A DNA stretch of 44,311 nucleotides, taken from the IMG/VR virus record IMGVR_UViG_3300045988_112757, one strand, 5' to 3'. Both the position numbers and the translations under genes were made by a program. Under the pieces are notes generated by a model that made no database searches, had not been told where the DNA came from, and was given only the letters and a program-made list of their open reading frames with translations. Positions 5,344-44,311 of the stretch are shown in pieces (the first letter of the stretch is position 1; each line of letters opens with the position of its first letter). Origin of the DNA: a virus.

Positions 5344-5853
5344 ATGGCAAAGAGAACGGAAGGAATCAAGACGACAACCGACAGCAAGCCCACCCGTAAA
5401 GTGGGCCGCCCTCGTGCATATACCCCCGAAGCGCTTGAAGCCAAGTTTGAAGAGTATGTCGAATGGGTGAAAGCGAATCCGCGATACAGCAACAAGGTAT
5501 TGGCCGACGGTTCTATTATTCCCGTACCTTATGAACGCCCATTGACATTATCCGGCTTTGCGGTGTTCGCCGGAATCATCCCGGAAACATTCAGAGAATA
5601 CGAGAAGCTCGATGAGTTTTCCGTCGTGTGTGCACGCGTGCGCGCGCGAATCGAATCCGATCAGTTGGAGGGTGCTATGTGTGAGCAGTACAACCCGACG
5701 ATTGCGTCGCGTGTTCTGCATCTTGCCGACCGCCAGGACGTGACAACCAACGGCAAGGAGATAACGGCCGCAATACAGCCTATTTCCGTGGTCCTCGATC
5801 CCGAAGCTGCCAAGATCATCCAGTCCATCGGCAAAATGACAGTAAAGGAATGA
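5344..5853 (+). CDS. terS: Terminase small subunit
   Basis: 169 aa. N-terminal KVGRPRAYTPEALEAKFEEYVEW is the common small-terminase HTH pattern. It sits directly upstream of, and coupled to, the large subunit. Confidence 0.85.
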   Translation: MAKRTEGIKTTTDSKPTRKVGRPRAYTPEALEAKFEEYVEWVKANPRYSNKVLADGSIIPVPYERPLTLSGFAVFAGIIPETFREYEKLDEFSVVCARVRARIESDQLEGAMCEQYNPTIASRVLHLADRQDVTTNGKEITAAIQPISVVLDPEAAKIIQSIGKMTVKE

Positions 5854-7085
5854 CGCCCGATCCCGTAACATACAGAGGCAAGACCTACAAAGTCAAAATG
5901 TACCTCTACCAGCTATACGCCGGGAGCGGCGCCGTCGTCCGTATCTTCGACGAGGGAAGTTCCCGATCCGGAAAGACTTTCGACACGGCGGACTTTCTGT
6001 ATGACATCTGCGCATCATCGTCCGTACCTCTTAAAATATACTGTTATCGGGCCACGCTTCAAGATTGCAAGGAAAAGACGCTGGACGACTTCCGCAAGAA
6101 GCTGCAACTACGCGGCGTATACGATCCCGATTGTATGCGTGGCGAAAACATTCTCCCTGAATATCGCATCAAGGATAGCGTGATTCGTTTCCGGGGGCTC
6201 GACAAAATGGATGTCAAAGAGGGCCACGACTGCGACATTGTATATTTCAACGAGATGCTCGACGGTGTAAGCCGTGCGCAATTCGACAATATCACCATGC
6301 GTTGCACGCGGATGGTCATCGGTGACTGGAATCCAAAATACACGGAGCATTGGGCGTTCCATATGGAGGGTGCCCCGGATACTATTTTCACGCACACGAC
6401 GTACAAGGATAATCCCTTCTGCCCGGCGGGGGTTCGCCGCACAATCGAGGGATACGAACCCACACCCGAGAATATCGCCGCCGGAACTGCCGACGAATGG
6501 CGCTGGGAAGTATACGGCCTCGGAGTACGTGCCGCGCAGGAGGGGCTGATATTCCCCGACATCGACTGGATCGACGAATTCCCCGAAGACATCGAACGCG
6601 TTGTATTGGGCCTCGACTTCGGATTCACAGCAGACCCCACGGCCTGCGTACGTGTCGGATTCCGTGCCCCGAACCATCTTTATTTGCAGGAGCTGATATA
6701 TCAGCCTATCGCCGACGCTTCGAAATTGTATGCAGCGCTTTCGCCGCACTTCACAAACGGAGTATCCCGATGCTATGCAGATAGCGCCGACAAATATGCC
6801 AAATCCCCCGAAAGCATGATAACCGCAATGCGCATTAAAGGGCTTACGGTCATCCCCGTGCGGAAATACCCGGGGTCTGTCATGGACGGCATCACGGTCA
6901 TGAAAGGATGCAAGATACACTGCGTGCGTTCGCGCAACATGCAGATAGAAGCAAACTCGTACGTGTGGGAGACGGTGAACGGCATCGCCATAAACTACCC
7001 GCACGACAAATTCAACCATCTATGGGACGCTTCCATATATGCCGTTCAGTCTGAATTCAAGAACCTTATTCAAATAGCTGCATAA
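5850..7085 (+). CDS. terL: Terminase large subunit
   Basis: 411 aa. Walker A-like GSSRSGKT. ATGA overlap with terS. Size and position are typical. Confidence 0.9.
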   Translation: MTPDPVTYRGKTYKVKMYLYQLYAGSGAVVRIFDEGSSRSGKTFDTADFLYDICASSSVPLKIYCYRATLQDCKEKTLDDFRKKLQLRGVYDPDCMRGENILPEYRIKDSVIRFRGLDKMDVKEGHDCDIVYFNEMLDGVSRAQFDNITMRCTRMVIGDWNPKYTEHWAFHMEGAPDTIFTHTTYKDNPFCPAGVRRTIEGYEPTPENIAAGTADEWRWEVYGLGVRAAQEGLIFPDIDWIDEFPEDIERVVLGLDFGFTADPTACVRVGFRAPNHLYLQELIYQPIADASKLYAALSPHFTNGVSRCYADSADKYAKSPESMITAMRIKGLTVIPVRKYPGSVMDGITVMKGCKIHCVRSRNMQIEANSYVWETVNGIAINYPHDKFNHLWDASIYAVQSEFKNLIQIAA

Positions 7086-8323
7086 TGAATCTATTCGGCT
7101 ACGAAATACGCAGGAAAAGCAATAATACAGCCTCAAATTTGCCGGCATCGACATTGAGCTACATCGGCGTACCTCCGGTATTTCAGGGATCAACTGAAAC
7201 CGTGGGAACGATCGACACCAGGGGCAAAGCGGGACAAGCCAAAGCATACGCACTTTGCTCGCCGCTGATGTCTGTGATCTCGAAGAAATGCGCGGCAATT
7301 AAGAACCTACGTCTTGCAGCCACCACGGAAGACGGTGAAGATATCGAACGACCGGACGCCGTGCGGACTATATCGCACCCTAATAGCGTGCAAGGCATCG
7401 CGGACTTCGTGGCATACATCGAGGCCATGACGCAGATTTTCGGCAAAGCCTATATCGTACGCATGGAATCGGTGGGGCTCCCGGGGGCTTTCGAGCTGTT
7501 CGTCGTTCCCAATCTTTGCGTCACGGAAAATGCCGCAATATCTCCGGCGTTATCGTTCATGCCCGATGCGGACATCGTGGATTACACGGTGACCATTTGC
7601 GGGTCTTCGATGAAGATAGCCAAAGAAGATATGTTCATCGTGAGGGATGCCTCTTATGATCTCAATGCTTGCGGCGGCAACATCTCCCGAATGGTATCAT
7701 TACAGAAGCCGGTGAATACTTTCGTGGCATCCTACGAAGCGGTGCATGAACTGATGGTCAACCGCGGTATGCTGGCTATTATCTCGCTGACATCCGGAAG
7801 CGGCGATATTATCCGGGATTCTCGGCTGCCGGAAACGGAATCGGAGAAGAACAACATACAACAGGCATTCAGAAAGTATGGCATCCGGGCCGATCAATTC
7901 AAATACGCGATCACGTCCATGAATGCTGCCGTAAGTCCGGTATCGTCAACGATTACCGATCTGGGACTGACAGACGTACAGAAAGCCTGCAAGAAAGAAA
8001 TCGCGGACATCTACCAAGTGCCGAGCGTGCTGCTCGACGTAGAGGGTTCAACGTACGCCAACGCCAAAGAAGCGAAAACGATATTATATAACGACGCGAT
8101 AATCCCCGAGGCAAATAATATATTCTCCGTGCTCAACAGGATATATGGCTTTGAGGATTTCAAGGTGATGCCCTACTACGATCATCTTGAACTCTTCCAA
8201 GAATCTAAGCGCGAACAGGCGGCGGGCATGACCAATCTCGTAAATGCCCTGAATAACGCCGTGTCCGGCGGTCTGATGACCACGGAGCAGGCTAAAACAG
8301 AACTTTTGAAATATATCGTATAA
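7085..8323 (+). CDS. Portal protein
   Basis: 412 aa. TAATG overlap with terL. Lies between terminase and prohead protease. Confidence 0.8.
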   Translation: MNLFGYEIRRKSNNTASNLPASTLSYIGVPPVFQGSTETVGTIDTRGKAGQAKAYALCSPLMSVISKKCAAIKNLRLAATTEDGEDIERPDAVRTISHPNSVQGIADFVAYIEAMTQIFGKAYIVRMESVGLPGAFELFVVPNLCVTENAAISPALSFMPDADIVDYTVTICGSSMKIAKEDMFIVRDASYDLNACGGNISRMVSLQKPVNTFVASYEAVHELMVNRGMLAIISLTSGSGDIIRDSRLPETESEKNNIQQAFRKYGIRADQFKYAITSMNAAVSPVSSTITDLGLTDVQKACKKEIADIYQVPSVLLDVEGSTYANAKEAKTILYNDAIIPEANNIFSVLNRIYGFEDFKVMPYYDHLELFQESKREQAAGMTNLVNALNNAVSGGLMTTEQAKTELLKYIV

Positions 8324-9045: not shown

Positions 9046-10347
9046 ATGGAGATTAAATCATTTGTGCTTCCCGCTGGCGTAGAGTTCAGCGAGGACGAGA
9101 AAAAGGGCCTGAACGCGCTCGGAGATTATATCAAAGGGCAGTTCGAGGAGATGGTCGCAGGCATCAAGTCACAGAACGAGATCGTCGAGGCTGTCAAGGA
9201 GGAGTTCGGGAAACTCGGGCTGTCGCCGGAGAAGATCGAAAAACTGGAGGGCGCGCTTAAAGCCCAGGGCGTCGAGATCGCCACGATGAAGAAAGGCACC
9301 CCCAAGCAGGAGGGACACAAAACGCTGGTCGCCGCGATGGAAGAGGTGCTGAAATCGGAAGAGTTCGCCGCCGCATATAAGGATATGCGGAACGGACGGG
9401 GGAGACTCTCGACGGGCGAGTTCGCGCTCAAACTCGACACGTCGGCCGTGACGAACGAAGACCCCAACCGCACCGTGCTGACGACGAAGATTTACGCAGA
9501 CGCCAGCCCCCGCAATGCGTTCGTGCAACTCTTCACGCGCATCAATGTGCCCGACGACAAGAACCGCATCATGTACAACGATGCTTCCTACACCGACGGC
9601 ACCGGGTATGCAGAGGAGATGACCAAGCACACCAATACCGACACCGCCACGCTTCAGGGCAAATACCGCGAGCTGTCGAAACTGGGGGCCGTGCTGCCGT
9701 TCTCGGCTGAAAGCGCTGAGGATTTCGGATACTTCCTCGCGTGGGCTCAGACCAAAGCCCAGGAGGGCATCGCCGCCAAACTCGATTCTCTGCTGTGGGA
9801 CGGTGACGGCGTGGATGCCTCCAAGCCCAAACACATCTACGGACTGAAAACATCCGGCGTTACGGCATTCAATGCAACGACGGCGGGTGTGGCAGCCAGC
9901 GTGTCGGCGCCGAACATCGCCGACCTGATCCTCGCTATGAAAACGCAGGCAAAGGTCGAGACCAACGATTCGATGGCTCCGAATTACGTGCTGATGAACT
10001 ACGCCACCGAGTTCAAGATGCGCACGCTGAAGAACACCCTCGGCGACTACATCACGGTGCTGCCCAATGGGGCCTTGTCGGTGCACGGCATGACGATTAT
10101 CCCGACCCCGAAACTCTCGGCCTCGGAGCTCGTCGTGCTCGATTCCACGACGCTCCAACTGCACGACAAGCGCAATATCACTATGGAGATCGAGCGCGTT
10201 CCGGAGACGGATTCGTATCGTCTGTGGCTGTGGTATCGCGGACAGGCCCTCGTTACGCGGCCGGATATGAAGGCGAATATCTATGTCGCCGACATCAACA
10301 CCGCTCTGGCCGCCATCGAGAAAGCAACAGCAGGACCGACCGAGTAA
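9046..10347 (+). CDS. Major capsid protein (HK97-like) with N-terminal coiled-coil delta region
   Basis: 433 aa. Position after the protease. The charged helical N-terminus is typical of a cleaved scaffold domain. Confidence 0.85.
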   Translation: MEIKSFVLPAGVEFSEDEKKGLNALGDYIKGQFEEMVAGIKSQNEIVEAVKEEFGKLGLSPEKIEKLEGALKAQGVEIATMKKGTPKQEGHKTLVAAMEEVLKSEEFAAAYKDMRNGRGRLSTGEFALKLDTSAVTNEDPNRTVLTTKIYADASPRNAFVQLFTRINVPDDKNRIMYNDASYTDGTGYAEEMTKHTNTDTATLQGKYRELSKLGAVLPFSAESAEDFGYFLAWAQTKAQEGIAAKLDSLLWDGDGVDASKPKHIYGLKTSGVTAFNATTAGVAASVSAPNIADLILAMKTQAKVETNDSMAPNYVLMNYATEFKMRTLKNTLGDYITVLPNGALSVHGMTIIPTPKLSASELVVLDSTTLQLHDKRNITMEIERVPETDSYRLWLWYRGQALVTRPDMKANIYVADINTALAAIEKATAGPTE

Positions 10348-26833: not shown

Positions 26834-28063
26834 TCAAAACTGCGTCAGCAATGCGGCATTTTTCTCGCGTTCTTCTCGTTCAAAAGAGGCGAGGTAATTT
26901 TCTGTCGTCTTCAAATCCGTGTGTCCGAGGCTTTCCGAAATATAGGCAATACTTGCTCCGGAACGCTTCAATACGGTGGCGAATGAATGGCGAGCCGTAT
27001 ATGTTGAAACCGGCGGCAACCCTAACACCTTAGAAATAGACCTAAATTTACGATTTATACAACTCGTCAGGTCTTTCGCCTTTTGCCGCTGTTCCTCAAT
27101 AGATTCTTTGCCTGTAAGAATCGGGAATATGAAAGCGTCGGGGCTTTCTTTGTTCCCCCATCGTGATATAATATCCTGCATTTGAGGTACAATTATCGCC
27201 CGCACGGCTTTCCGGGACTTTGTGCGGTGCTCCGTCTTTTTCCGTACATAGCTTATTTCCCCGTCCTCAATATCACTATATCGCAACTTTACAAAGTCGG
27301 CAACATTAATCCCATTGCACAAATACATAAACAGCCAATAATCGCGGTATTTTGCCGTTGCTTCGTATCCATCATCATAACGGGCTATCAAGCCTATCTG
27401 CTCCAATGTAAGGGCCAGTTTGCGGCCCTCGCCCTCTTGTATCTCGTAGCGCCCCCGGCCAAATGGATACTGCGCCTCCTTTACAATACCAATAGCCCGG
27501 GCCTGGTTGAATATCGACCGCAGAGCACGCATATATATCGCAATAGTTGTCTGTCCCTTACCCGAAGCGCGCATAAACTCTTCAAATCGACGCAGCCATG
27601 AAATAGAAACATCTATATATTGTACCTCCCGCTTTGAAAAAGCATTCATCGACAGCAACAACGCACGCAGAATATCCGCCGTGCCTATGTGGGATGTTTT
27701 CCGCAATTCCTGCTCTTTGATTTGAATGGCCGCATTTACTGAAGTAGCACCGGCCCCTTTCAAACGAGCGCTTAACAATTCGAGTGTAAAACAACCTTTA
27801 GACGTTAAATCTTCGACAGCTTGTCGAACCAATTCAAAACTATTTTCTATATCTTTGCGAACGGATACAAGCGAGTGGAGGCGCGTTGCGTTCAGTCGCT
27901 CCCAGTCGTCGGGCATCATACTCTTACCGGTTGGGTAGTACGAGCGCACACGACGATACGATACCCGGATACGCACGGGATATTGGCCGTTTGCCAACGC
28001 CCGGCGCGTGTCGAGAATGGTGGCTACCGTCACGCCATCCTTTGAGTAGTAGTGGTTGTTCAT
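26834..28063 (-). CDS. int: Tyrosine recombinase / phage integrase
   Basis: 409 aa. C-terminal catalytic region ...YTARHSFATVLKRSGASIAYISESLGHTDLKTTENYL (R..HxxR..Y pattern). N-terminal arm-type domain typical of Bacteroidota integrases. Confidence 0.95.
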   Translation of the reverse strand: MNNHYYSKDGVTVATILDTRRALANGQYPVRIRVSYRRVRSYYPTGKSMMPDDWERLNATRLHSLVSVRKDIENSFELVRQAVEDLTSKGCFTLELLSARLKGAGATSVNAAIQIKEQELRKTSHIGTADILRALLLSMNAFSKREVQYIDVSISWLRRFEEFMRASGKGQTTIAIYMRALRSIFNQARAIGIVKEAQYPFGRGRYEIQEGEGRKLALTLEQIGLIARYDDGYEATAKYRDYWLFMYLCNGINVADFVKLRYSDIEDGEISYVRKKTEHRTKSRKAVRAIIVPQMQDIISRWGNKESPDAFIFPILTGKESIEEQRQKAKDLTSCINRKFRSISKVLGLPPVSTYTARHSFATVLKRSGASIAYISESLGHTDLKTTENYLASFEREEREKNAALLTQF

Positions 28064-28140: not shown

Positions 28141-28209
28141 TGTTGCCGGAAACGGCATGAAAAGCTATGAAAAACTATGAAAACCAACAAAATACGCATG
28201 GCATGCAAG

Positions 28210-28239
28210 AGGTCACGAGTTCGAATCTCGTATTCTCCA
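28210..28239 (+). other. attP core candidate: 3' end of a tRNA (T arm plus acceptor 3' strand) with no 5' half
   Basis: GGTC ACGAG TTCGAAT CTCGT ATTCTCC A. No matching GGAGAAT 5' acceptor strand lies upstream. Located between xis and int. Confidence 0.6.
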
Positions 28240-28252
28240 CAATTAAAAATCA

Positions 28253-33128: not shown

Positions 33129-33511
33129 CGTTTAATCAACTTTGCATGTAAACCATCAATCTCATACTCCCGGTAGCATTTATCGCAGATAATTGGCCCA
33201 TCCTCATAAACAGGGTCTCCCAATTCTTCCCAATCGTCAGTATAATTAATGCCCCTCGCCTGAATCCCATTTCCGCAAATGCACGTAAACTCACAGACGA
33301 CTTTATACTTAATATCTTCCACATGAATGTATACATCCAACCGGCCATCATTGGCGGCCTTTTCCCGTTGTATACGTTCGCGCTCGATCTTCTGCAAAAG
33401 CGCGATTTGTTCGGGATTGCCGATTTCAGGTTTTACCTCTACATCCCCGCGCATAAATTTGCCATTCACGAGGCGCAACGGCCGCTCAATGCTTGTTACC
33501 TGATCTTTCAT
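33125..33511 (-). CDS. Hypothetical Cys-rich protein (128 aa)
   Basis: CEFTCICGNG ... ICDKCYREY. The start overlaps the dcm 3' end by 26 nt. Confidence 0.6.
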   Translation of the reverse strand: MKDQVTSIERPLRLVNGKFMRGDVEVKPEIGNPEQIALLQKIERERIQREKAANDGRLDVYIHVEDIKYKVVCEFTCICGNGIQARGINYTDDWEELGDPVYEDGPIICDKCYREYEIDGLHAKLIKR

Positions 33512-34451
33512 AATTTTCGTACTTATTTATCGTTTCGAATATCTGCAAGGCCACCTGCGGAACTATGGCGTTGCCGCATGCTTTGATGGATTCTCTGCAC
33601 CACGCAGGAAAGGAGAGATCAGCCAGCTCGCCGGGAAACCCATCATTTCGATCACATACCGGGGATTCAGTCGGGAAGTCGTCCCAGCCTGGTATTCGTC
33701 GCTTTGCATTACCATTCTGGGCAATCCGCTCTTGCATTTGACTTGGCTGGCCGGGAGACTGGAATTCGTGGCATCGTTGGCCGTAGGCATCGGCAACAGT
33801 CCCATTCGAGCCGCCAGTGCGATTGTCGGTCGGTCGGCAGCTCCCGGAGACAGACTCCGGTTGATACGCCCCGATCCGGCATCTATTGCAGTCGGCGTCG
33901 GCAGCAACTCCAACGGCATGAACACCATCTTGCCCTTCTCGCATTGTTTCAATACCTGCGTCTGTACGGTAGGCAACAAACCAGCATCTGTCCCGTCGGT
34001 GGGGAGCGCCGACACCGCAAGCCGGTATAATGTACGGCTGCACTTCGTATCCTGCCGCCTCCAGGTCAGAGCACACCTGCTCGAAGACCATTCCTTCCGA
34101 CCAATTAACAATTCCGAAAACGTTCTCGCCCACGACCCAACGGGGTCGAACAGTCCGAATAACCCGCAGCATCTCCGGCCAGAGGTAGCGGTCGTCCTCC
34201 GTGCCTTTGCGCTTGCCCGCGAGGCTGAACGGCTGGCAGGGGAATCCGCCGCTGAGCACGTCGATACGATCTCGCCAAATGGTAAAGTCTGCTGTTCGTA
34301 TGTCTCCATATTGTTCTGCATCGGGAAAATGGTATTTCAGTACGCTGCGGCAAAACGGGTCGATCTCGCAGTTGAAGGCGTTCGTCCAGCCAGCCCACTC
34401 GGCCGCCAGATCGAAGCCGCCGATGCCGCTGAAAAGGGAAGCGTGTGTCAT
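33486..34451 (-). CDS. dcm: DNA (cytosine-5)-methyltransferase
   Basis: Motifs FSGIGGFDLA (I), GGFPCQPFS (IV), GENV (VI) and GNAIVPQVA (X). The ATG at 34451 forms an ATGA overlap with the upstream gene. An ATG at 34457 is also possible. Confidence 0.9.
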   Translation of the reverse strand: MTHASLFSGIGGFDLAAEWAGWTNAFNCEIDPFCRSVLKYHFPDAEQYGDIRTADFTIWRDRIDVLSGGFPCQPFSLAGKRKGTEDDRYLWPEMLRVIRTVRPRWVVGENVFGIVNWSEGMVFEQVCSDLEAAGYEVQPYIIPACGVGAPHRRDRCWFVAYRTDAGIETMREGQDGVHAVGVAADADCNRCRIGAYQPESVSGSCRPTDNRTGGSNGTVADAYGQRCHEFQSPGQPSQMQERIAQNGNAKRRIPGWDDFPTESPVCDRNDGFPGELADLSFPAWCRESIKACGNAIVPQVALQIFETINKYENYERSGNKH

Positions 34452-35326
34452 TCGCATAATCCGTAATAACTCATACAGCTTGTCGCTGTGTCGTCGTCGA
34501 ACAAGCTGCCCGTGGCGTTCTGCCACTCGACATAGCGCACGACATCTCGGATCGTCGGATATTTTTCGCCACTGGTGATCGCGTGGGCAGGAATCTTATC
34601 CGGTCCGAAAAACGAGGAGTGCAATTCCATTTCGAGGGTTGCAATCTCGTCGATCCGCTCCGGAGCCTGCCGGGCAATATTGAGGATGTCCCGCTGATTC
34701 GCCATCACGCACGGCCAGCAGCCGACACGCTTGTAGCCCATCCGGTAGAGCGGGTTCGGCTCCAACCCGGCGGCGAGAATGGAATCGATCACCTGCTGCG
34801 CCGACCAGTCGAACACGGGACGCAAAAGATCGTCGGCGAACTTTTCCCGGAACACCCGGACATCCTTACTCCGGTAGGTGTGCTTTTTCGGCTTGCCGTT
34901 TTTGTCGTATCCGTAAGGCTCGAAATAGTACTTGAAATACGTGCATTGCGCCGACATACTGGCCCGGCTGGCCGATTCTGCCGCCCGAATGCCCTGAATC
35001 ATCAGCATATTGTCCTGAACCTCGTCCAGCACGTAATCGATCGTTGGCTTGGTTTTGAGTTCTTCCGTGCAGAATCGAGCCCGCGTCGAGGGCCAGCGCT
35101 TTTTCTGCCGCGCAAGATCAACCATCCCGTCGTACTTCTTCGACTTCAATGTTACCAGGTCGAGATGCAACTTGTCGGCGATGCGATGGATGTACTCGTA
35201 AGTCAGCGGGTGTTCCCAGCCCGTTTCGCAGAATACGGTCGTGAAATTCCGGGTGATATGTTCCCGGGTCCACAACAGCGCCGCAAGGCTGTCTTTTCCG
35301 CCCGAGAATGTGACGATGACTTTCAT
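34448..35326 (-). CDS. PAPS-reductase-family PP-loop protein
   Basis: 292 aa. VTFSGGKDS PP-loop, RFCTEELK, VGCWPC. Confidence 0.85.
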   Translation of the reverse strand: MKVIVTFSGGKDSLAALLWTREHITRNFTTVFCETGWEHPLTYEYIHRIADKLHLDLVTLKSKKYDGMVDLARQKKRWPSTRARFCTEELKTKPTIDYVLDEVQDNMLMIQGIRAAESASRASMSAQCTYFKYYFEPYGYDKNGKPKKHTYRSKDVRVFREKFADDLLRPVFDWSAQQVIDSILAAGLEPNPLYRMGYKRVGCWPCVMANQRDILNIARQAPERIDEIATLEMELHSSFFGPDKIPAHAITSGEKYPTIRDVVRYVEWQNATGSLFDDDTATSCMSYYGLCE

Positions 35327-41432: not shown

Positions 41433-41536
41433 CTATGTTGTTTATATTATTTCTTTGCCTCCAAGATAGGCATATTAGCTTCTGTAGGAATATATACCAC
41501 CTTGTTGGGGATGTTATTCTGTTAGCGCACCATAAT

Positions 41537-42001
41537 TTAATCGTCTCTTTTTGCATTATAAATACCCCATAAATACCGATATGCTTTGTGATATTTCTTC
41601 AATCTCTTCAAATCTTCATTTGTGAGTTTGTCGAGGCGTGTAATATCCATATTGTGTTTGAGATCGGCAATTTTAACCTCTAATGCAGTGGAATTTTGAG
41701 CACATCGTCTAATGTATTCCATGTAATCTTCTTTATTGCGCCGTGATATAGCTTCCACGGCGTCGGCTATATCTCTGCCGAATAGCTCATTCAGGCGCTC
41801 ATATGTTACCCCGCCATCCTCTATGACCTCATGGAGCAGCGCAACTTTATCCCGAAAAGGATCATTGTAATGGTATAGTTCATTGACAATATCCAAAACC
41901 CGGAAACAATGATATATAATAGGCCGTCCTGATTTATCCTTAGAGGCTCCTAATTGCATTTCGGCGAAACGTGCCACATTTAAAAGTGATTTTGGTAACA
42001 T
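41537..42001 (-). CDS. HD-domain protein, RelA/SpoT-hydrolase (small alarmone hydrolase)-like
   Basis: 154 aa. ...GRPIIYHCFRV...VALLHEVIEDGGVTYERLNELFGRDIADAVEAISR...VKIADLKHNM follows the (p)ppGpp-hydrolase HD-domain pattern, but with HE in place of the HD dyad. Confidence 0.8.
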   Translation of the reverse strand: MLPKSLLNVARFAEMQLGASKDKSGRPIIYHCFRVLDIVNELYHYNDPFRDKVALLHEVIEDGGVTYERLNELFGRDIADAVEAISRRNKEDYMEYIRRCAQNSTALEVKIADLKHNMDITRLDKLTNEDLKRLKKYHKAYRYLWGIYNAKRDD

Positions 42002-42126
42002 AACTTACTTCAAGATAATAAAATGTCGAGGAAAAGTCTCGGTCTTTTAAAATAGATTTTACCTATATTGAGACACCGCAAACAGAGATAATTCTTATAC
42101 ATCTTGCGCGTGTGGTTCGATACGCT

Positions 42127-42207
42127 TATATTTGCGTCGTCAAATATGGTTAACACAACCAACTACAGTTACACCCAAGGCGTCTAACCCCAAGTAGACG
42201 CTTTTTT
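42127..42207 (+). ncRNA. Candidate stand-alone small transcription unit: -7 box TATATTTG (42127-42134), 13-codon ORF MVNTTNYSYTQGV (42146-42187), terminator (42180-42207)
   Basis: All three elements lie within 81 nt. No other plus-strand gene is nearby. Confidence 0.35.
42180..42207 (+). terminator. Rho-independent terminator
   Basis: 7-bp stem GCGTCTA/TAGACGC, 8-nt loop, TTTTTT. Confidence 0.7.
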
Positions 42208-42664
42208 AATGAGAAAAGTCCGAGGGCTTAGATGTATTGACAGGACGCAAATCCTCTCCACGTGTTTTAATCATATTTGACTTATGAATAGTGGATTTCG
42301 CTTAACTGGCAATCACCTCTATTGCGGCGGTGATAAGTCCACCCATGTAAGATCGTACATTCGTGTACGCTATGGGAAAATTGAGCACGTTTGCGAACAC
42401 TGCCGAAGAGCTTGGGGCTCTCGCAAAGTAGCAGCGTAATCTCATTGGAGTTTTGACCTACCTCGGCCCTCGGATCTTTTCTCCCCATTACCCCAAATTC
42501 AATGCCATCCTCCGCGACCTCTCGGCGTTTTTAAGATAGCGCGCCTTGTATTTCTCATTGGCTTTCTCCGGAGGAACCAGGATTACCGTGTTTCTATCGA
42601 GCCGTAAGGGAACGTTTTAATATCCTTGAAAATATCATTCATAATTACAAGAACTTATCACTTG

Positions 42665-42735
42665 TTGAGCTACCCGGATTCGAACCGGAAGCGCCACCTC
42701 CAAAGGGTGATGTGTTACCGTTACACCATAGCTCA
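42665..42735 (-). tRNA. tRNA-Gln (anticodon UUG)
   Basis: Cloverleaf read by eye. Acceptor UGAGCUA/UAGCUCA (U1-A72 as in bacterial tRNA-Gln), U8, D stem GUGU/ACAC, anticodon stem UCACC/GGUGG, loop CU-UUG-GA, 4-nt variable loop, T arm UCCGG-UUCGAAU-CCGGG, discriminator A. No CCA is encoded. Confidence 0.85.
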
Positions 42736-42883
42736 ATAAATGCCGGTCTTTCCCGGCTGCCAGATGCTTTCGCATAACCTGTCCGATAGAGTCAAGCGTC
42801 TGTTCCGCTTTGCCATTGCCGCGCAATCGGCAATAATCCCTTGCGCTATCGTCGCTCTACTTGCATCATCAACAAAGGGGTTG

Positions 42884-42968
42884 CGGAGGGTGAGAGATTC
42901 GAACTCCCGAAGCGTTTCCGCTCGCCGGATTAGTAAGCCGGAGCCTTCAACCACTCGGCCAACCCTCC
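42884..42968 (-). tRNA. Class-II (serine-type body) tRNA with a non-canonical anticodon arm; nominal anticodon ACU, loop contains CUA
   Basis: Acceptor GGAGGGU/ACCCUCC, discriminator G, 3-bp D stem GCC/GGC with loop GAGUGGUUGAA, variable arm GAGCG-GAAA-CGCUU, T arm GGGAG-UUCGAAU-CUCUC. The anticodon arm CCGGC-UUACUAA-UCCGG has a C31.U39 mismatch. Confidence 0.8.
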
Positions 42969-43034
42969 AAATATCGCCCGCGGGCCTCACGGATGGCGGG
43001 CGACGGTTCTTGTTATGACGTAAGTAAGGCGTCG

Positions 43035-43295
43035 TCACGCCTTTTCTTTGACGAAACGCCCGCCGGCGCCTCGCTTCCGGGTGTACTTCATAAGGTCGAG
43101 TTCTGCGGAAATACGCAGGTTCCGTTCTTCGGCGCACTTTTTCAGGAGGTCATTGCGGTCTTTTTCACCCGCGGTGAAACTCCGGCGAATGTCCGCATTT
43201 ACGCGCTCCAGCCGTTCGATCTCCGCGCGGTATCGCTTCCGCGGAGTGAAGTCCATGCCCAGAAATTTCCGGGCCTTGAATGTCTCGGTTCTCAT
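43035..43295 (-). CDS. Hypothetical coiled-coil basic protein (86 aa)
   Basis: 4-nt overlap with the upstream HTH gene. Confidence 0.6.
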   Translation of the reverse strand: MRTETFKARKFLGMDFTPRKRYRAEIERLERVNADIRRSFTAGEKDRNDLLKKCAEERNLRISAELDLMKYTRKRGAGGRFVKEKA

Positions 43296-43543
43296 ATTTG
43301 TGCAATTTCAGGGTTAACGACCATATGATACTCTTTGTAGCGGACGATCCGCCCTCTGTCGGCATCGTGGCTGTAACACCAATCGCCGACGATGATGTAG
43401 CCTTTACGCCGGAGCCGCGTGACGATCTTTCGCAGCTCTGTTGTGCCGAATTTGTTCATCGCTTTCCACACCGTCAGCGTGCCGCCTCTGATGAAATAGG
43501 CCAAGATGCGGGCCTGCGGCTTCCTTAAATCTTTCTTCTTCAT
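43292..43543 (-). CDS. Winged-helix / HTH_39-like DNA-binding protein (83 aa)
   Basis: ARILAYFIRGGTLTVWKAMNKFGTTELRKIVTRLRRKGYII. Confidence 0.7.
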   Translation of the reverse strand: MKKKDLRKPQARILAYFIRGGTLTVWKAMNKFGTTELRKIVTRLRRKGYIIVGDWCYSHDADRGRIVRYKEYHMVVNPEIAQI

Positions 43544-43993
43544 AGCTGTAAAATTTTAAGGTTTGCGCCCTGACGCTATCGAAAGCAAGGCACACCGATC
43601 GGCAGGGTATCGGCGCCATCAGGGCAAGGGTGCGGGCTTTGCGCGGTGTGATAACCACTAACTTAAATTACAAAATGGACAGAAAGAACGTGTGCACTCA
43701 GCCCGCATTGGAGCCCGTGAAGTCGATCAAAACCGCACGGGCATAATTTGCGTCTATTTATCCCGGTGGTCCTCGCCGCTCATATCATCGCAGCTTTGGA
43801 GCCCGTGCCGGTCTTTCGCGCATTTCGGCTATTTGCTTACTCGCGGCCGCATCTTCTCAATGGCGGCACATAGTGCAGTACGTTGCAGGCGTCGGTCGGA
43901 ATGGTGTGGCTCCGACTGCCCGATCGCTTTCTGCCTTGCGGCTGGGGTTATTGCCAGCGATCAAACCCCTAACCCTTGCGGGCTGCGATCTTG

Positions 43994-44088
43994 GGAGTGC
44001 GGCAGGATTCGAACCTGCGTAGATGGTACTTTACTTCACATCTCCTTCCGTTAGTTATGCGGAGGCATTGCCAACCTGCCACGCACTC
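43994..44088 (-). tRNA. Class-II tRNA-like gene (95 nt) with a very long variable arm and a non-canonical anticodon arm; identity undetermined
   Basis: Acceptor GAGUGCG/CGCACUC, C73 with a possible G-1 at 44089, D stem GCA/UGC, T arm GCAGG-UUCGAAU-CCUGC, variable arm of about 26 nt with an AGAUG/CAUCU stem. The anticodon arm UCCGC-AUAACUA-ACGGA has a C31.A39 mismatch. Confidence 0.7.
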
Positions 44089-44095
44089 CTTGTTA

Positions 44096-44311
44096 CTATC
44101 CCTGCTTCTCGAATTTTATAGAATCATCCGCGAATACAACTCTATTGTCTTGGATATACCGTGCGATGCTTTTATCGTTTACTTGGCATTCGATAGCCGA
44201 AGTAAGGATAATCATCGTCGAGGTTCCCCAGCTCTCGGCGTTAATCGTCGAGGTTCCCCAGCTCCGGGCGTTAATCGTCGAGGTTTCCCAGCTCCGGGCG
44301 TTAATCGTCGA
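44096..44311 (-). CDS. Decapeptide-repeat protein, 3' part of the wrap-around gene (5' part at 1-377)
   Basis: The same frame enters from the right edge: STINARSWETSTINARSWGTSTINAESWGTSTMIILTSAIECQVNDKSIARYIQDNRVVFADDSIKFEKQG, with stop TAG at 44098-44096. Confidence 0.75.
   Translation of the reverse strand, partial: STINARSWETSTINARSWGTSTINAESWGTSTMIILTSAIECQVNDKSIARYIQDNRVVFADDSIKFEKQG
44211..44311. repeat. 30-bp tandem repeat array, right portion
   Basis: Partial unit 44211-44234, full units 44235-44264 and 44265-44294, partial unit 44295-44311. Nt 44265-44311 are identical to nt 1-47. Confidence 0.95.

Follow-up and report, generated by a model that had tools for sequence, protein, structure and literature searches.

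According to textbook wobble rules and PMC11066159, genes for tRNAs with an unmodified adenosine at anticodon position 34 (A34) hardly exist. Outside Arg, A34 is very rare in cellular genomes (PMC11066159), and the only usual A34 tRNA of bacteria is tRNA-Arg(ACG). The behaviour of the anticodon ACU is known from an orthogonal tRNA in E. coli, which read AGU and discriminated U from C by at least 95:5 (Schmitt et al. 2024, PMC11066159). The same tRNA carried no inosine, its reading of AGC and AGA was undetectable, and it read AGG weakly (PMC11066159). A tRNA-Ser(ACU) is also mentioned in horizontally acquired Acidithiobacillus tRNA arrays, in a 2015 survey (PMC4758250).

The AGY codons of serine are usually read by tRNA-Ser(GCU). 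Its G34 reads both AGC and AGU, whereas with A34 little besides AGU should be read. Genes for tRNA-Ser(ACU) are nevertheless found in cultured phages, namely Rhizobium phages RHph_TM30 and TM2_3B (annotated in GenBank as ‘tRNA-Ser(act)’), the Salmonella jumbo phage 7t3 and Ralstonia phage RP13. These carriers are large phages with a tRNA cluster of their own. The class is therefore already in public annotation, though unstudied; a literature search found no paper on the function of a phage tRNA-Ser(ACU). Similar genes occur in gut phages, for example in GenBank MT839121.1.

The DNA analysed here is the whole of IMG/VR virus record IMGVR_UViG_3300045988_112757, 44,311 nucleotides long and called the window below. 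It is the genome, of about 44 kb, of a temperate tailed phage. Its main landmarks, and the features around the tRNA genes, are as follows.

5850-7085, plus strand, large terminase
7085-8323, plus strand, portal
9046-10347, plus strand, major head protein
26834-28063, minus strand, integrase
41537-42001, minus strand, HD_4 protein of 154 aa, RelA/SpoT-type hydrolase-like (phrog_990, E 2.3e-41; PF13328, 27.9 bits against a cut-off of 27.2)
42664-42735, minus strand, tRNA-Gln(UUG) (ARAGORN; Rfam, 59.3 bits, gathering threshold 29)
42884-42968, minus strand, tRNA-Ser(ACU), class II (ARAGORN and Rfam RF00005)
43292-43543, minus strand, gene for a small winged-helix protein, between the two class-II tRNA elements (Pfam HTH_39, 32.7 bits)
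43994-44088, minus strand, weak class-II tRNA-like element (Rfam, 34.2 bits; not called by ARAGORN)

The minus strand also holds an Erf-like annealing protein and a replication initiator. The tRNA-Ser(ACU) and the tRNA-Gln(UUG) are the only tRNAs that ARAGORN calls in the window. Two small ORFs separate the HD_4 gene from this upstream tRNA pair. The HD_4 protein is possibly a small alarmone hydrolase and, lying so near the tRNAs, could belong to a translation-protection module.

ARAGORN, which the preliminary description had proposed as a check, calls a tRNA-Ser with anticodon act at 42883-42968 on the minus strand. Rfam cmscan matches RF00005 at 42884-42968 on the same strand with 48.5 bits (E 1.8e-7), and the match is full-length, over model positions 1-71. 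The gathering threshold is 29, so this is not the score of a pseudogene, an outcome that had been named as one that would speak against the gene. The preliminary description had placed a class-II serine tRNA at 42884-42968; the coordinates are right, and the minus strand was unstated there.

Read from the sequence, the acceptor stem is GGAGGGU/ACCCUCC, followed by G73, and CCA is not encoded. The D stem has 3 bp plus G13.A22. The variable arm is GAGCG-GAAA-CGCUU, a 5-bp stem capped by a GNRA tetraloop, and the T arm is GGGAG/CUCUC. This agrees with the body as described earlier, with its G73, 3-bp D stem and GNRA-capped variable arm. The identity set of bacterial seryl-tRNA synthetases (SerRS) consists of a long paired variable arm, a 3-bp D stem with G13.A22, G73, and the pairs G1-C72, G2-C71 and A3-U70. 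All of it is present here, in the sequence as well as in the cmscan alignment.

The anticodon stem is CCGG/CCGG, after which C31 (42937) stands unpaired opposite U39 (42929). The cmscan alignment flags 31-39 as the single non-standard pair in the tRNA. The loop and the anticodon then fall as follows.

42936-42930, minus strand, 7-nt anticodon loop U32 U33 A34 C35 U36 A37 A38 (sequence reading)
42932-42934, minus strand, anticodon A34 (42934), C35 (42933), U36 (42932) (sequence reading and cmscan)

The earlier account of this arm, CCGG/CCGG with a C.U at 31-39 and U33-ACU-A37 by canonical numbering, is thus confirmed by both the sequence and cmscan. ACU is the cognate anticodon of the serine codon AGU.

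Relatives were sought in IMG/VR with a pattern that allows any base at the nine loop positions but prescribes the flanks of the anticodon arm. It matched 32 related contigs, with CTTACTAAT in 32 of 32 and an identical anticodon loop in every one. Homologues with GCU or UGA loops had been considered possible, but these homologues keep ACU. The only frequent polymorphism is in the tetraloop of the variable arm, and it stays within GNRA (GAAA, GUAA, GCAA, GCGA). The tRNA-Gln(UUG), 148 nt downstream of tRNA-Ser(ACU), is present together with it in 32 of 32 relatives.

In an alignment of 31 sequences, nucleotide diversity is 0.013 in tRNA-Ser(ACU), against 0.06-0.27 in its flanks. There the Ser-Gln spacer is lowest, at 0.06, the ORFs and spacer on the upstream side have 0.14-0.15, and the downstream side reaches 0.27. 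The tRNA is therefore 5- to 20-fold less diverse than what surrounds it, which argues for purifying selection. As far as sequence comparison can tell, tRNA-Ser(ACU) is a real, conserved and selected gene, and not a random lesion.

A wider Ser(act) set was gathered from three further scans and one BLAST search. It holds 20 unique sequences, which form nine clusters at 85% identity, and ACU is invariant in all 20. The string UACUAA (U33-A34-C35-U36-A37-A38) is likewise invariant in 13 of 13 lineage representatives. Compensatory changes are seen at 21 of the 26 helix pairs across these 13 diverse homologues. The variable-arm stem covaries among the homologues, and so do the anticodon stems (ccggt/accgg, gcggt/accgc, gctgt/acagc, cctga/tcagg, acggt/accgt, ctcgt/acgag). 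Most lineages have a clean 5-bp anticodon stem and a 7-nt loop YUACUAA. This closed stem fixes the register, which means that the anticodon is ACU. Four more IMG/VR lineages lie outside the gut sample set, and there Ser(act) sits in multi-tRNA clusters.

Among the fetched loci, Ser(act) was found in 55 and Ser(gct) in 74, and within the span fetched no locus had both. With the same D-arm motif, the ACU pattern matched 42 viral contigs (3 of them not tRNAs) and the GCU pattern 65, the latter being unscreened raw matches. Together with the cultured carriers, these counts make ACU a regular alternative to GCU in phages. The window gene fits, with its serine body, its loop UUACUAA and no Ser(GCU) called alongside by ARAGORN or Rfam. 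It is best explained, judging by these comparisons, as a member of a recurrent phage class in which ACU replaces the usual GCU reader of AGY codons. The earlier remark that such an anticodon is unusual for a phage tRNA does not hold up, given nine phage lineages that include cultured phages annotated ‘tRNA-Ser(act)’. A megablast of 20 kb found no close relatives of the window among GenBank phages, and the distant mode gave tRNA-sized matches only.

The cultured-phage genes share with the window the class-II serine body, YUACUAA and ACU, and no Ser(GCU) lies beside them in the fetched loci. They are 64-74% identical to the window tRNA, their anticodon stem has 5 clean pairs, and CCA is encoded. 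The window gene, in contrast, has C31.U39, no CCA, and a 44-kb temperate Bacteroidota phage as its carrier.

The gut-phage genes come, besides MT839121.1, from the IMG/VR contigs of loci L128, L159, L177, L180, L184, L204, L207, L160 and L193, and they share with the window the T arm, the type of acceptor and ACUAA. Most of them also have 31-39 unpaired, as C.U or U.U, with a compensatory 29-41 change, whereas L184 and L204 have a paired C31-G39. In MT839121.1, for example, the arm is CCUGC/CUACUAA/UCAGG, with C31.U39 and the compensatory 29-41 change, and the gene adjoins a Ser(AGA). These contigs are mostly larger than the window, at 67-134 kb, with L160 and L193 at about 47 kb. In place of Gln, the tRNAs that accompany the gene there are Ser(AGA) or Ser(UGA), Leu(UAA) and Leu(CAA); the exception is again L160 and L193, which have Gln(UUG).

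An ordinary tRNA-Ser(GCU) has in common with the window gene the AGY slot, the class-II architecture and a loop in which position 34 is the main difference (CUGCUAA versus UUACUAA). Even the mismatch is sometimes shared, since 31-39 is unpaired in 7 of 56 Ser(gct).

Several larger gut contigs contain a second A34 serine tRNA, Ser(AGA), for example L126 at 337-421 on the minus strand, and also L128, L177, L184 and L204. These have a clean stem and the loop CUAGAAA, and they adjoin Ser(ACU), with Leu(UAA) and Leu(CAA) close by in most. Other non-Arg A34 tRNAs among 938 unique tRNAs of the fetched viral loci are, in unique sequences, Thr(AGU) with 6, Leu(AAG) with 4, and His(AUG) and Val(AAC) with 1 each.

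The host can be placed through the integrase. Exact copies of the integrase gene in assemblies adjoin genes for a CbiA-like protein, a TonB-dependent receptor and SusD, which places the host in the Bacteroidota. These host flank genes (SusC/SusD/CbiA) have 63% GC, against about 50% in the phage. The host codon sample is small, at 2884 codons from 5 flank genes, and the counts that it allows are as follows.

AGT/AGC: host flank genes 3/58, phage 79/153
CAA/CAG: host flank genes 10/87, phage 204/235

AGT makes up 0.63% of phage codons and 0.10% of those in the host flank genes; for CAA this is 1.6% and 0.35%. Each of the two phage tRNAs thus reads a codon that ends in A or U and is all but avoided by the host. 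Relative to the host flank genes, AGU is about 5-fold enriched, but a good number of further codons ending in A or T exceed it, among them TTA (59-fold), TCA (41-fold) and AGA (15-fold). Compensation thus does not single out AGU. It is also still the minority AGY codon in the phage, above all in the late genes (24 versus 79). In the first 50 kb of RHph_TM30, at 43% GC, AGT occurs 177 times and AGC 59 times, and Lys(UUU) and Arg(UCU) lie beside Ser(ACU). In the other Ser(act) clusters, most companion tRNAs have U34 and read codons ending in A. Classical codon-usage compensation is the best-supported mechanism, without accounting for the choice of A34 over G34.

The gene most probably encodes a working serine tRNA, in which A34-C35-U36 reads AGU through a Watson-Crick A34:U pair. 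It would share its transcription with the leftward early genes of the minus strand, host RNase P and RNase Z would release it from the transcript, and the host CCA-adding enzyme would supply the CCA that is not encoded. By the identity rules, charging would fall to the host seryl-tRNA synthetase, which recognises the long variable arm, G73 and G1-C72/G2-C71/A3-U70. This enzyme does not read the anticodon. A34 would be left unmodified, and A37 would probably become t6A, as in other ANN-reading tRNAs. Together, tRNA-Ser(ACU) and tRNA-Gln(UUG) would supply readers for the A/U-ending codons AGU and CAA, and the codon counts above suggest where the benefit would lie. The unpaired 31-39 could weaken the anticodon arm. 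On the minus strand of 41500-44311, no Bacteroidota-type promoter or -7 box (TAnnTTTG) was found upstream of the tRNAs.

Two other accounts also take the tRNA to be functional. One is that host TadA deaminates A34 to inosine, so that AGU and AGC are read well and AGA weakly, with some serine placed at arginine codons. The loop UUACUAA does differ from the TadA substrate loop CUACGAA of phage tRNA-Arg(acg) at 32 and 36 only, passages in PMC11066159, PMC13249217 and PMC11472039 indicate that more than one A34 tRNA is modified in some bacteria, and related gut phages have genes for Ser(AGA) together with Leu(AAG). Seen position by position, the window gene shares U33-A34-C35 and A37-A38 with tRNA-Arg(ACG), but has U32 for C32 and U36 for G36, on a serine class-II body. 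The E. coli ACU tRNA had no inosine, TadA is described as ‘very specific’ for the Arg2 anticodon and loop, and changes at 32, 37 or 38 blocked modification of other partial substrates (all PMC11066159). Furthermore, the phage uses AGA 96 times, presumably for arginine, which would make an ICU anticodon costly. No deaminase motif (H/C-A/V-E ... PCxxC) occurs in any frame of the window. The inosine and AGA reading offered earlier is therefore unlikely, given U36 in place of G36 and an ACU that E. coli does not deaminate (PMC11066159); it keeps some weight since the TadA evidence comes from E. coli and not from the native host enzyme. Quite improbable too is a role in evading defence, in which A34 and the unpaired 31-39 would protect the tRNA from a host anticodon nuclease, or another defence aimed at tRNAs, by which the host tRNA-Ser(GCU) is put out of action; the phage copy would then be a replacement and not a supplement for codon usage. 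Escape from anticodon nucleases by changes in the anticodon loop has been proposed for phage tRNAs (PMC10264068), and HEPN nucleases such as ApeA cut serine tRNAs among others (bioRxiv 10.64898/2026.01.26.701840). Three gut lineages moreover retain the 31-39 mismatch together with a compensatory change at 29-41, and downstream of the tRNA pair there is the HD_4 hydrolase-like gene. Set against this, A34 is common to lineages of very different hosts while the mismatch is not, the set of tRNAs carried is already explained by codon usage, and no nuclease specific for tRNA-Ser(GCU) was identified in this analysis.

Less probable still are the ideas that the gene is a relic or an amber suppressor. 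As a relic, it would be a decaying or non-functional G34A mutant of a captured tRNA-Ser(GCU). This is very unlikely: the gene is far less diverse than its flanks, ACU is kept across nine lineages with covarying stems, and no GCU twin of this arm turned up in metagenome or genome collections, even if A34 outside Arg is as rare in cells as noted above, the stem has a mismatch, and the adjoining tRNA-like element is clearly decaying. In the JGI metagenomes the search for such a twin returned one unrelated tRNA-Ser(GCU), on a 333-kb contig. Among 185,579 species genomes, the anticodon-arm pattern found no tRNA that could be a host or prophage copy, only chance coding matches in high-GC genomes. 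The suppressor idea starts from the mismatch, which on opening gives a 9-nt loop (CUUACUAAU), and makes the tRNA an amber (CUA) suppressor or other non-triplet decoder. Here one can point to the conservation of C31.U39 or U31.U39 in the window family and two related gut lineages, and to RNAfold, which draws the anticodon arm of the second element with a 9-nt loop. The likeness to the amber-suppressor tRNAs of recoded phages is that both are phage-encoded and have a CUA string in the loop. Such a suppressor has CUA at 34-36 of a 7-nt loop, directly after U33, in a genome that needs TAG read-through. In the window gene CUA is at 35-37, the base before it is A34 and not U33, and the genome shows neither TAG recoding nor a need for read-through. 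Most lineages have the closed 5-bp stem with UACUAA, which puts CUA at 35-37 there as well, and CUAA is also part of ordinary Ser(GCU) loops (CUGCUAA). Nor is a mismatch at 31-39 a rarity, though it is uncommon: it occurs in 43 of 934 unique phage tRNAs (4.6%), the 7 of 56 Ser(gct) included. Long genes are intact under the standard code, TAG ends 9 of 74 predicted genes, and in-frame downstream ORFs are no commoner after TAG than after TAA. TAG is an ordinary stop in this phage, and the amber reading suggested earlier is barely conceivable.

Two candidates involving stop codons were also rejected. Global recoding of TAG, TGA or TAA does not fit, as the long structural genes are intact under the standard code. 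Read-through fusions at TAG were considered for two TAG-ended genes that are followed by an in-frame ORF, but the same in-frame spacing of 3 nt is equally common after TAA. In unrelated fetched loci there are four tRNAs with the anticodon CUA, which ARAGORN labels ‘Pyl’.

The preliminary description had also pointed to the second class-II element of this genome, as showing the same peculiarities and so arguing against a random lesion. Its arm is UCCGC/AUAACUA/ACGGA, with a variable arm of about 29 nt and a possible 8-bp acceptor stem. By canonical numbering it has A34-A35-C36 (AAC), U37 and a C31.A39 mismatch. It does therefore share A34, a mismatched closing pair and the string ACUAA. The anticodon however is AAC, followed by U37, and the Rfam score is 34.2 bits. 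Single-sequence folding gave a z of about -2 for both class-II elements, which is uninformative.

The second element is intact in about two thirds of relatives. Among the first 32, 7 have it collapsed to an acceptor/T-arm minihelix, 2 have a chimeric form and 2 lack it. The minihelix form is a deletion between two GCAGGTT repeats. The loci in which the variation was seen are L002, L009, L015-L018, L023 and L249, L013 and L025, and L246-L266.

The 3' half of the second element (GCAGGTTCGAATCCTGCCGCACTCC) recurs as a conserved junction in 43 viral contigs. On the 5' side of that junction there is a full tRNA-like body, an acceptor/T-arm minihelix, or unrelated sequence. The junction has the look of a boundary left by recombination or mosaicism, or else of an att-like remnant. 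Going by this variation, the second element appears to be a mosaic boundary or a decaying element; it is not required by the family and offers no corroboration for the serine gene. The earlier verdict of no random lesion stands on the conserved loop, the covariation and the low diversity, and loses the second element as support. A diverged tRNA-Leu(UAA), which would read the codon most depleted in the host, was tried as an identity for this element and rejected, as it is unlike the Leu(UAA) genes of related gut phages and U33 would be missing.

Within its class, the window gene is ordinary. It is the class that is at odds with the common statement that A34 tRNAs barely exist. A broader reading is possible and is offered tentatively: phages may carry a widespread class of serine tRNAs, with ACU and sometimes also AGA, in which A34 stays unmodified within a split codon box, as dedicated Watson-Crick readers of U-ending codons and a natural exception to the avoidance of A34 outside tRNA-Arg. 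The conserved unpaired 31-39 of the Bacteroidota phages would then be a tuning element, which might for example block TadA or an anticodon nuclease, or adjust decoding strength. If expressed and unmodified, these tRNAs are natural material for A34 decoding in a split codon box, and a clean example of a phage tuning translation to AT-richer codons in GC-rich hosts. For annotation, it means that phage ‘Ser(act)’ calls should neither be dismissed as pseudogenes nor read as suppressors.

Some further observations concern the rest of the genome and its relatives. A tandem repeat of 30 nt lies at 44214-44311 and at 3-98, in about 3.3 and 3.2 copies, and continues past either end of the window. The genome is probably circular, with the contig opened within an iteron-like array that is situated just upstream of the tRNA-like element. 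In the early region, the genes for a DNA methyltransferase and a PAPS-reductase-like protein overlap (33486-35326, minus strand), and this pairing is also seen in related contigs. In L204, at 10111-10197 on the minus strand, ARAGORN assigns a four-base anticodon, taag, to a Leu(UAA) homologue whose acceptor is changed at the 5' end. Either this gene is degenerate or its loop has 8 nt.

A probable attP core lies at 28196-28240, upstream of the integrase gene, and consists of the T arm and acceptor strand that make up a tRNA's 3' half. The core is identical to the junction beside the host CbiA/SusC/SusD genes in integrated copies (L231, 5826-5870). A weak Rfam match to a tmRNA 3' end, at 28214-28231, is this same attP tRNA fragment.
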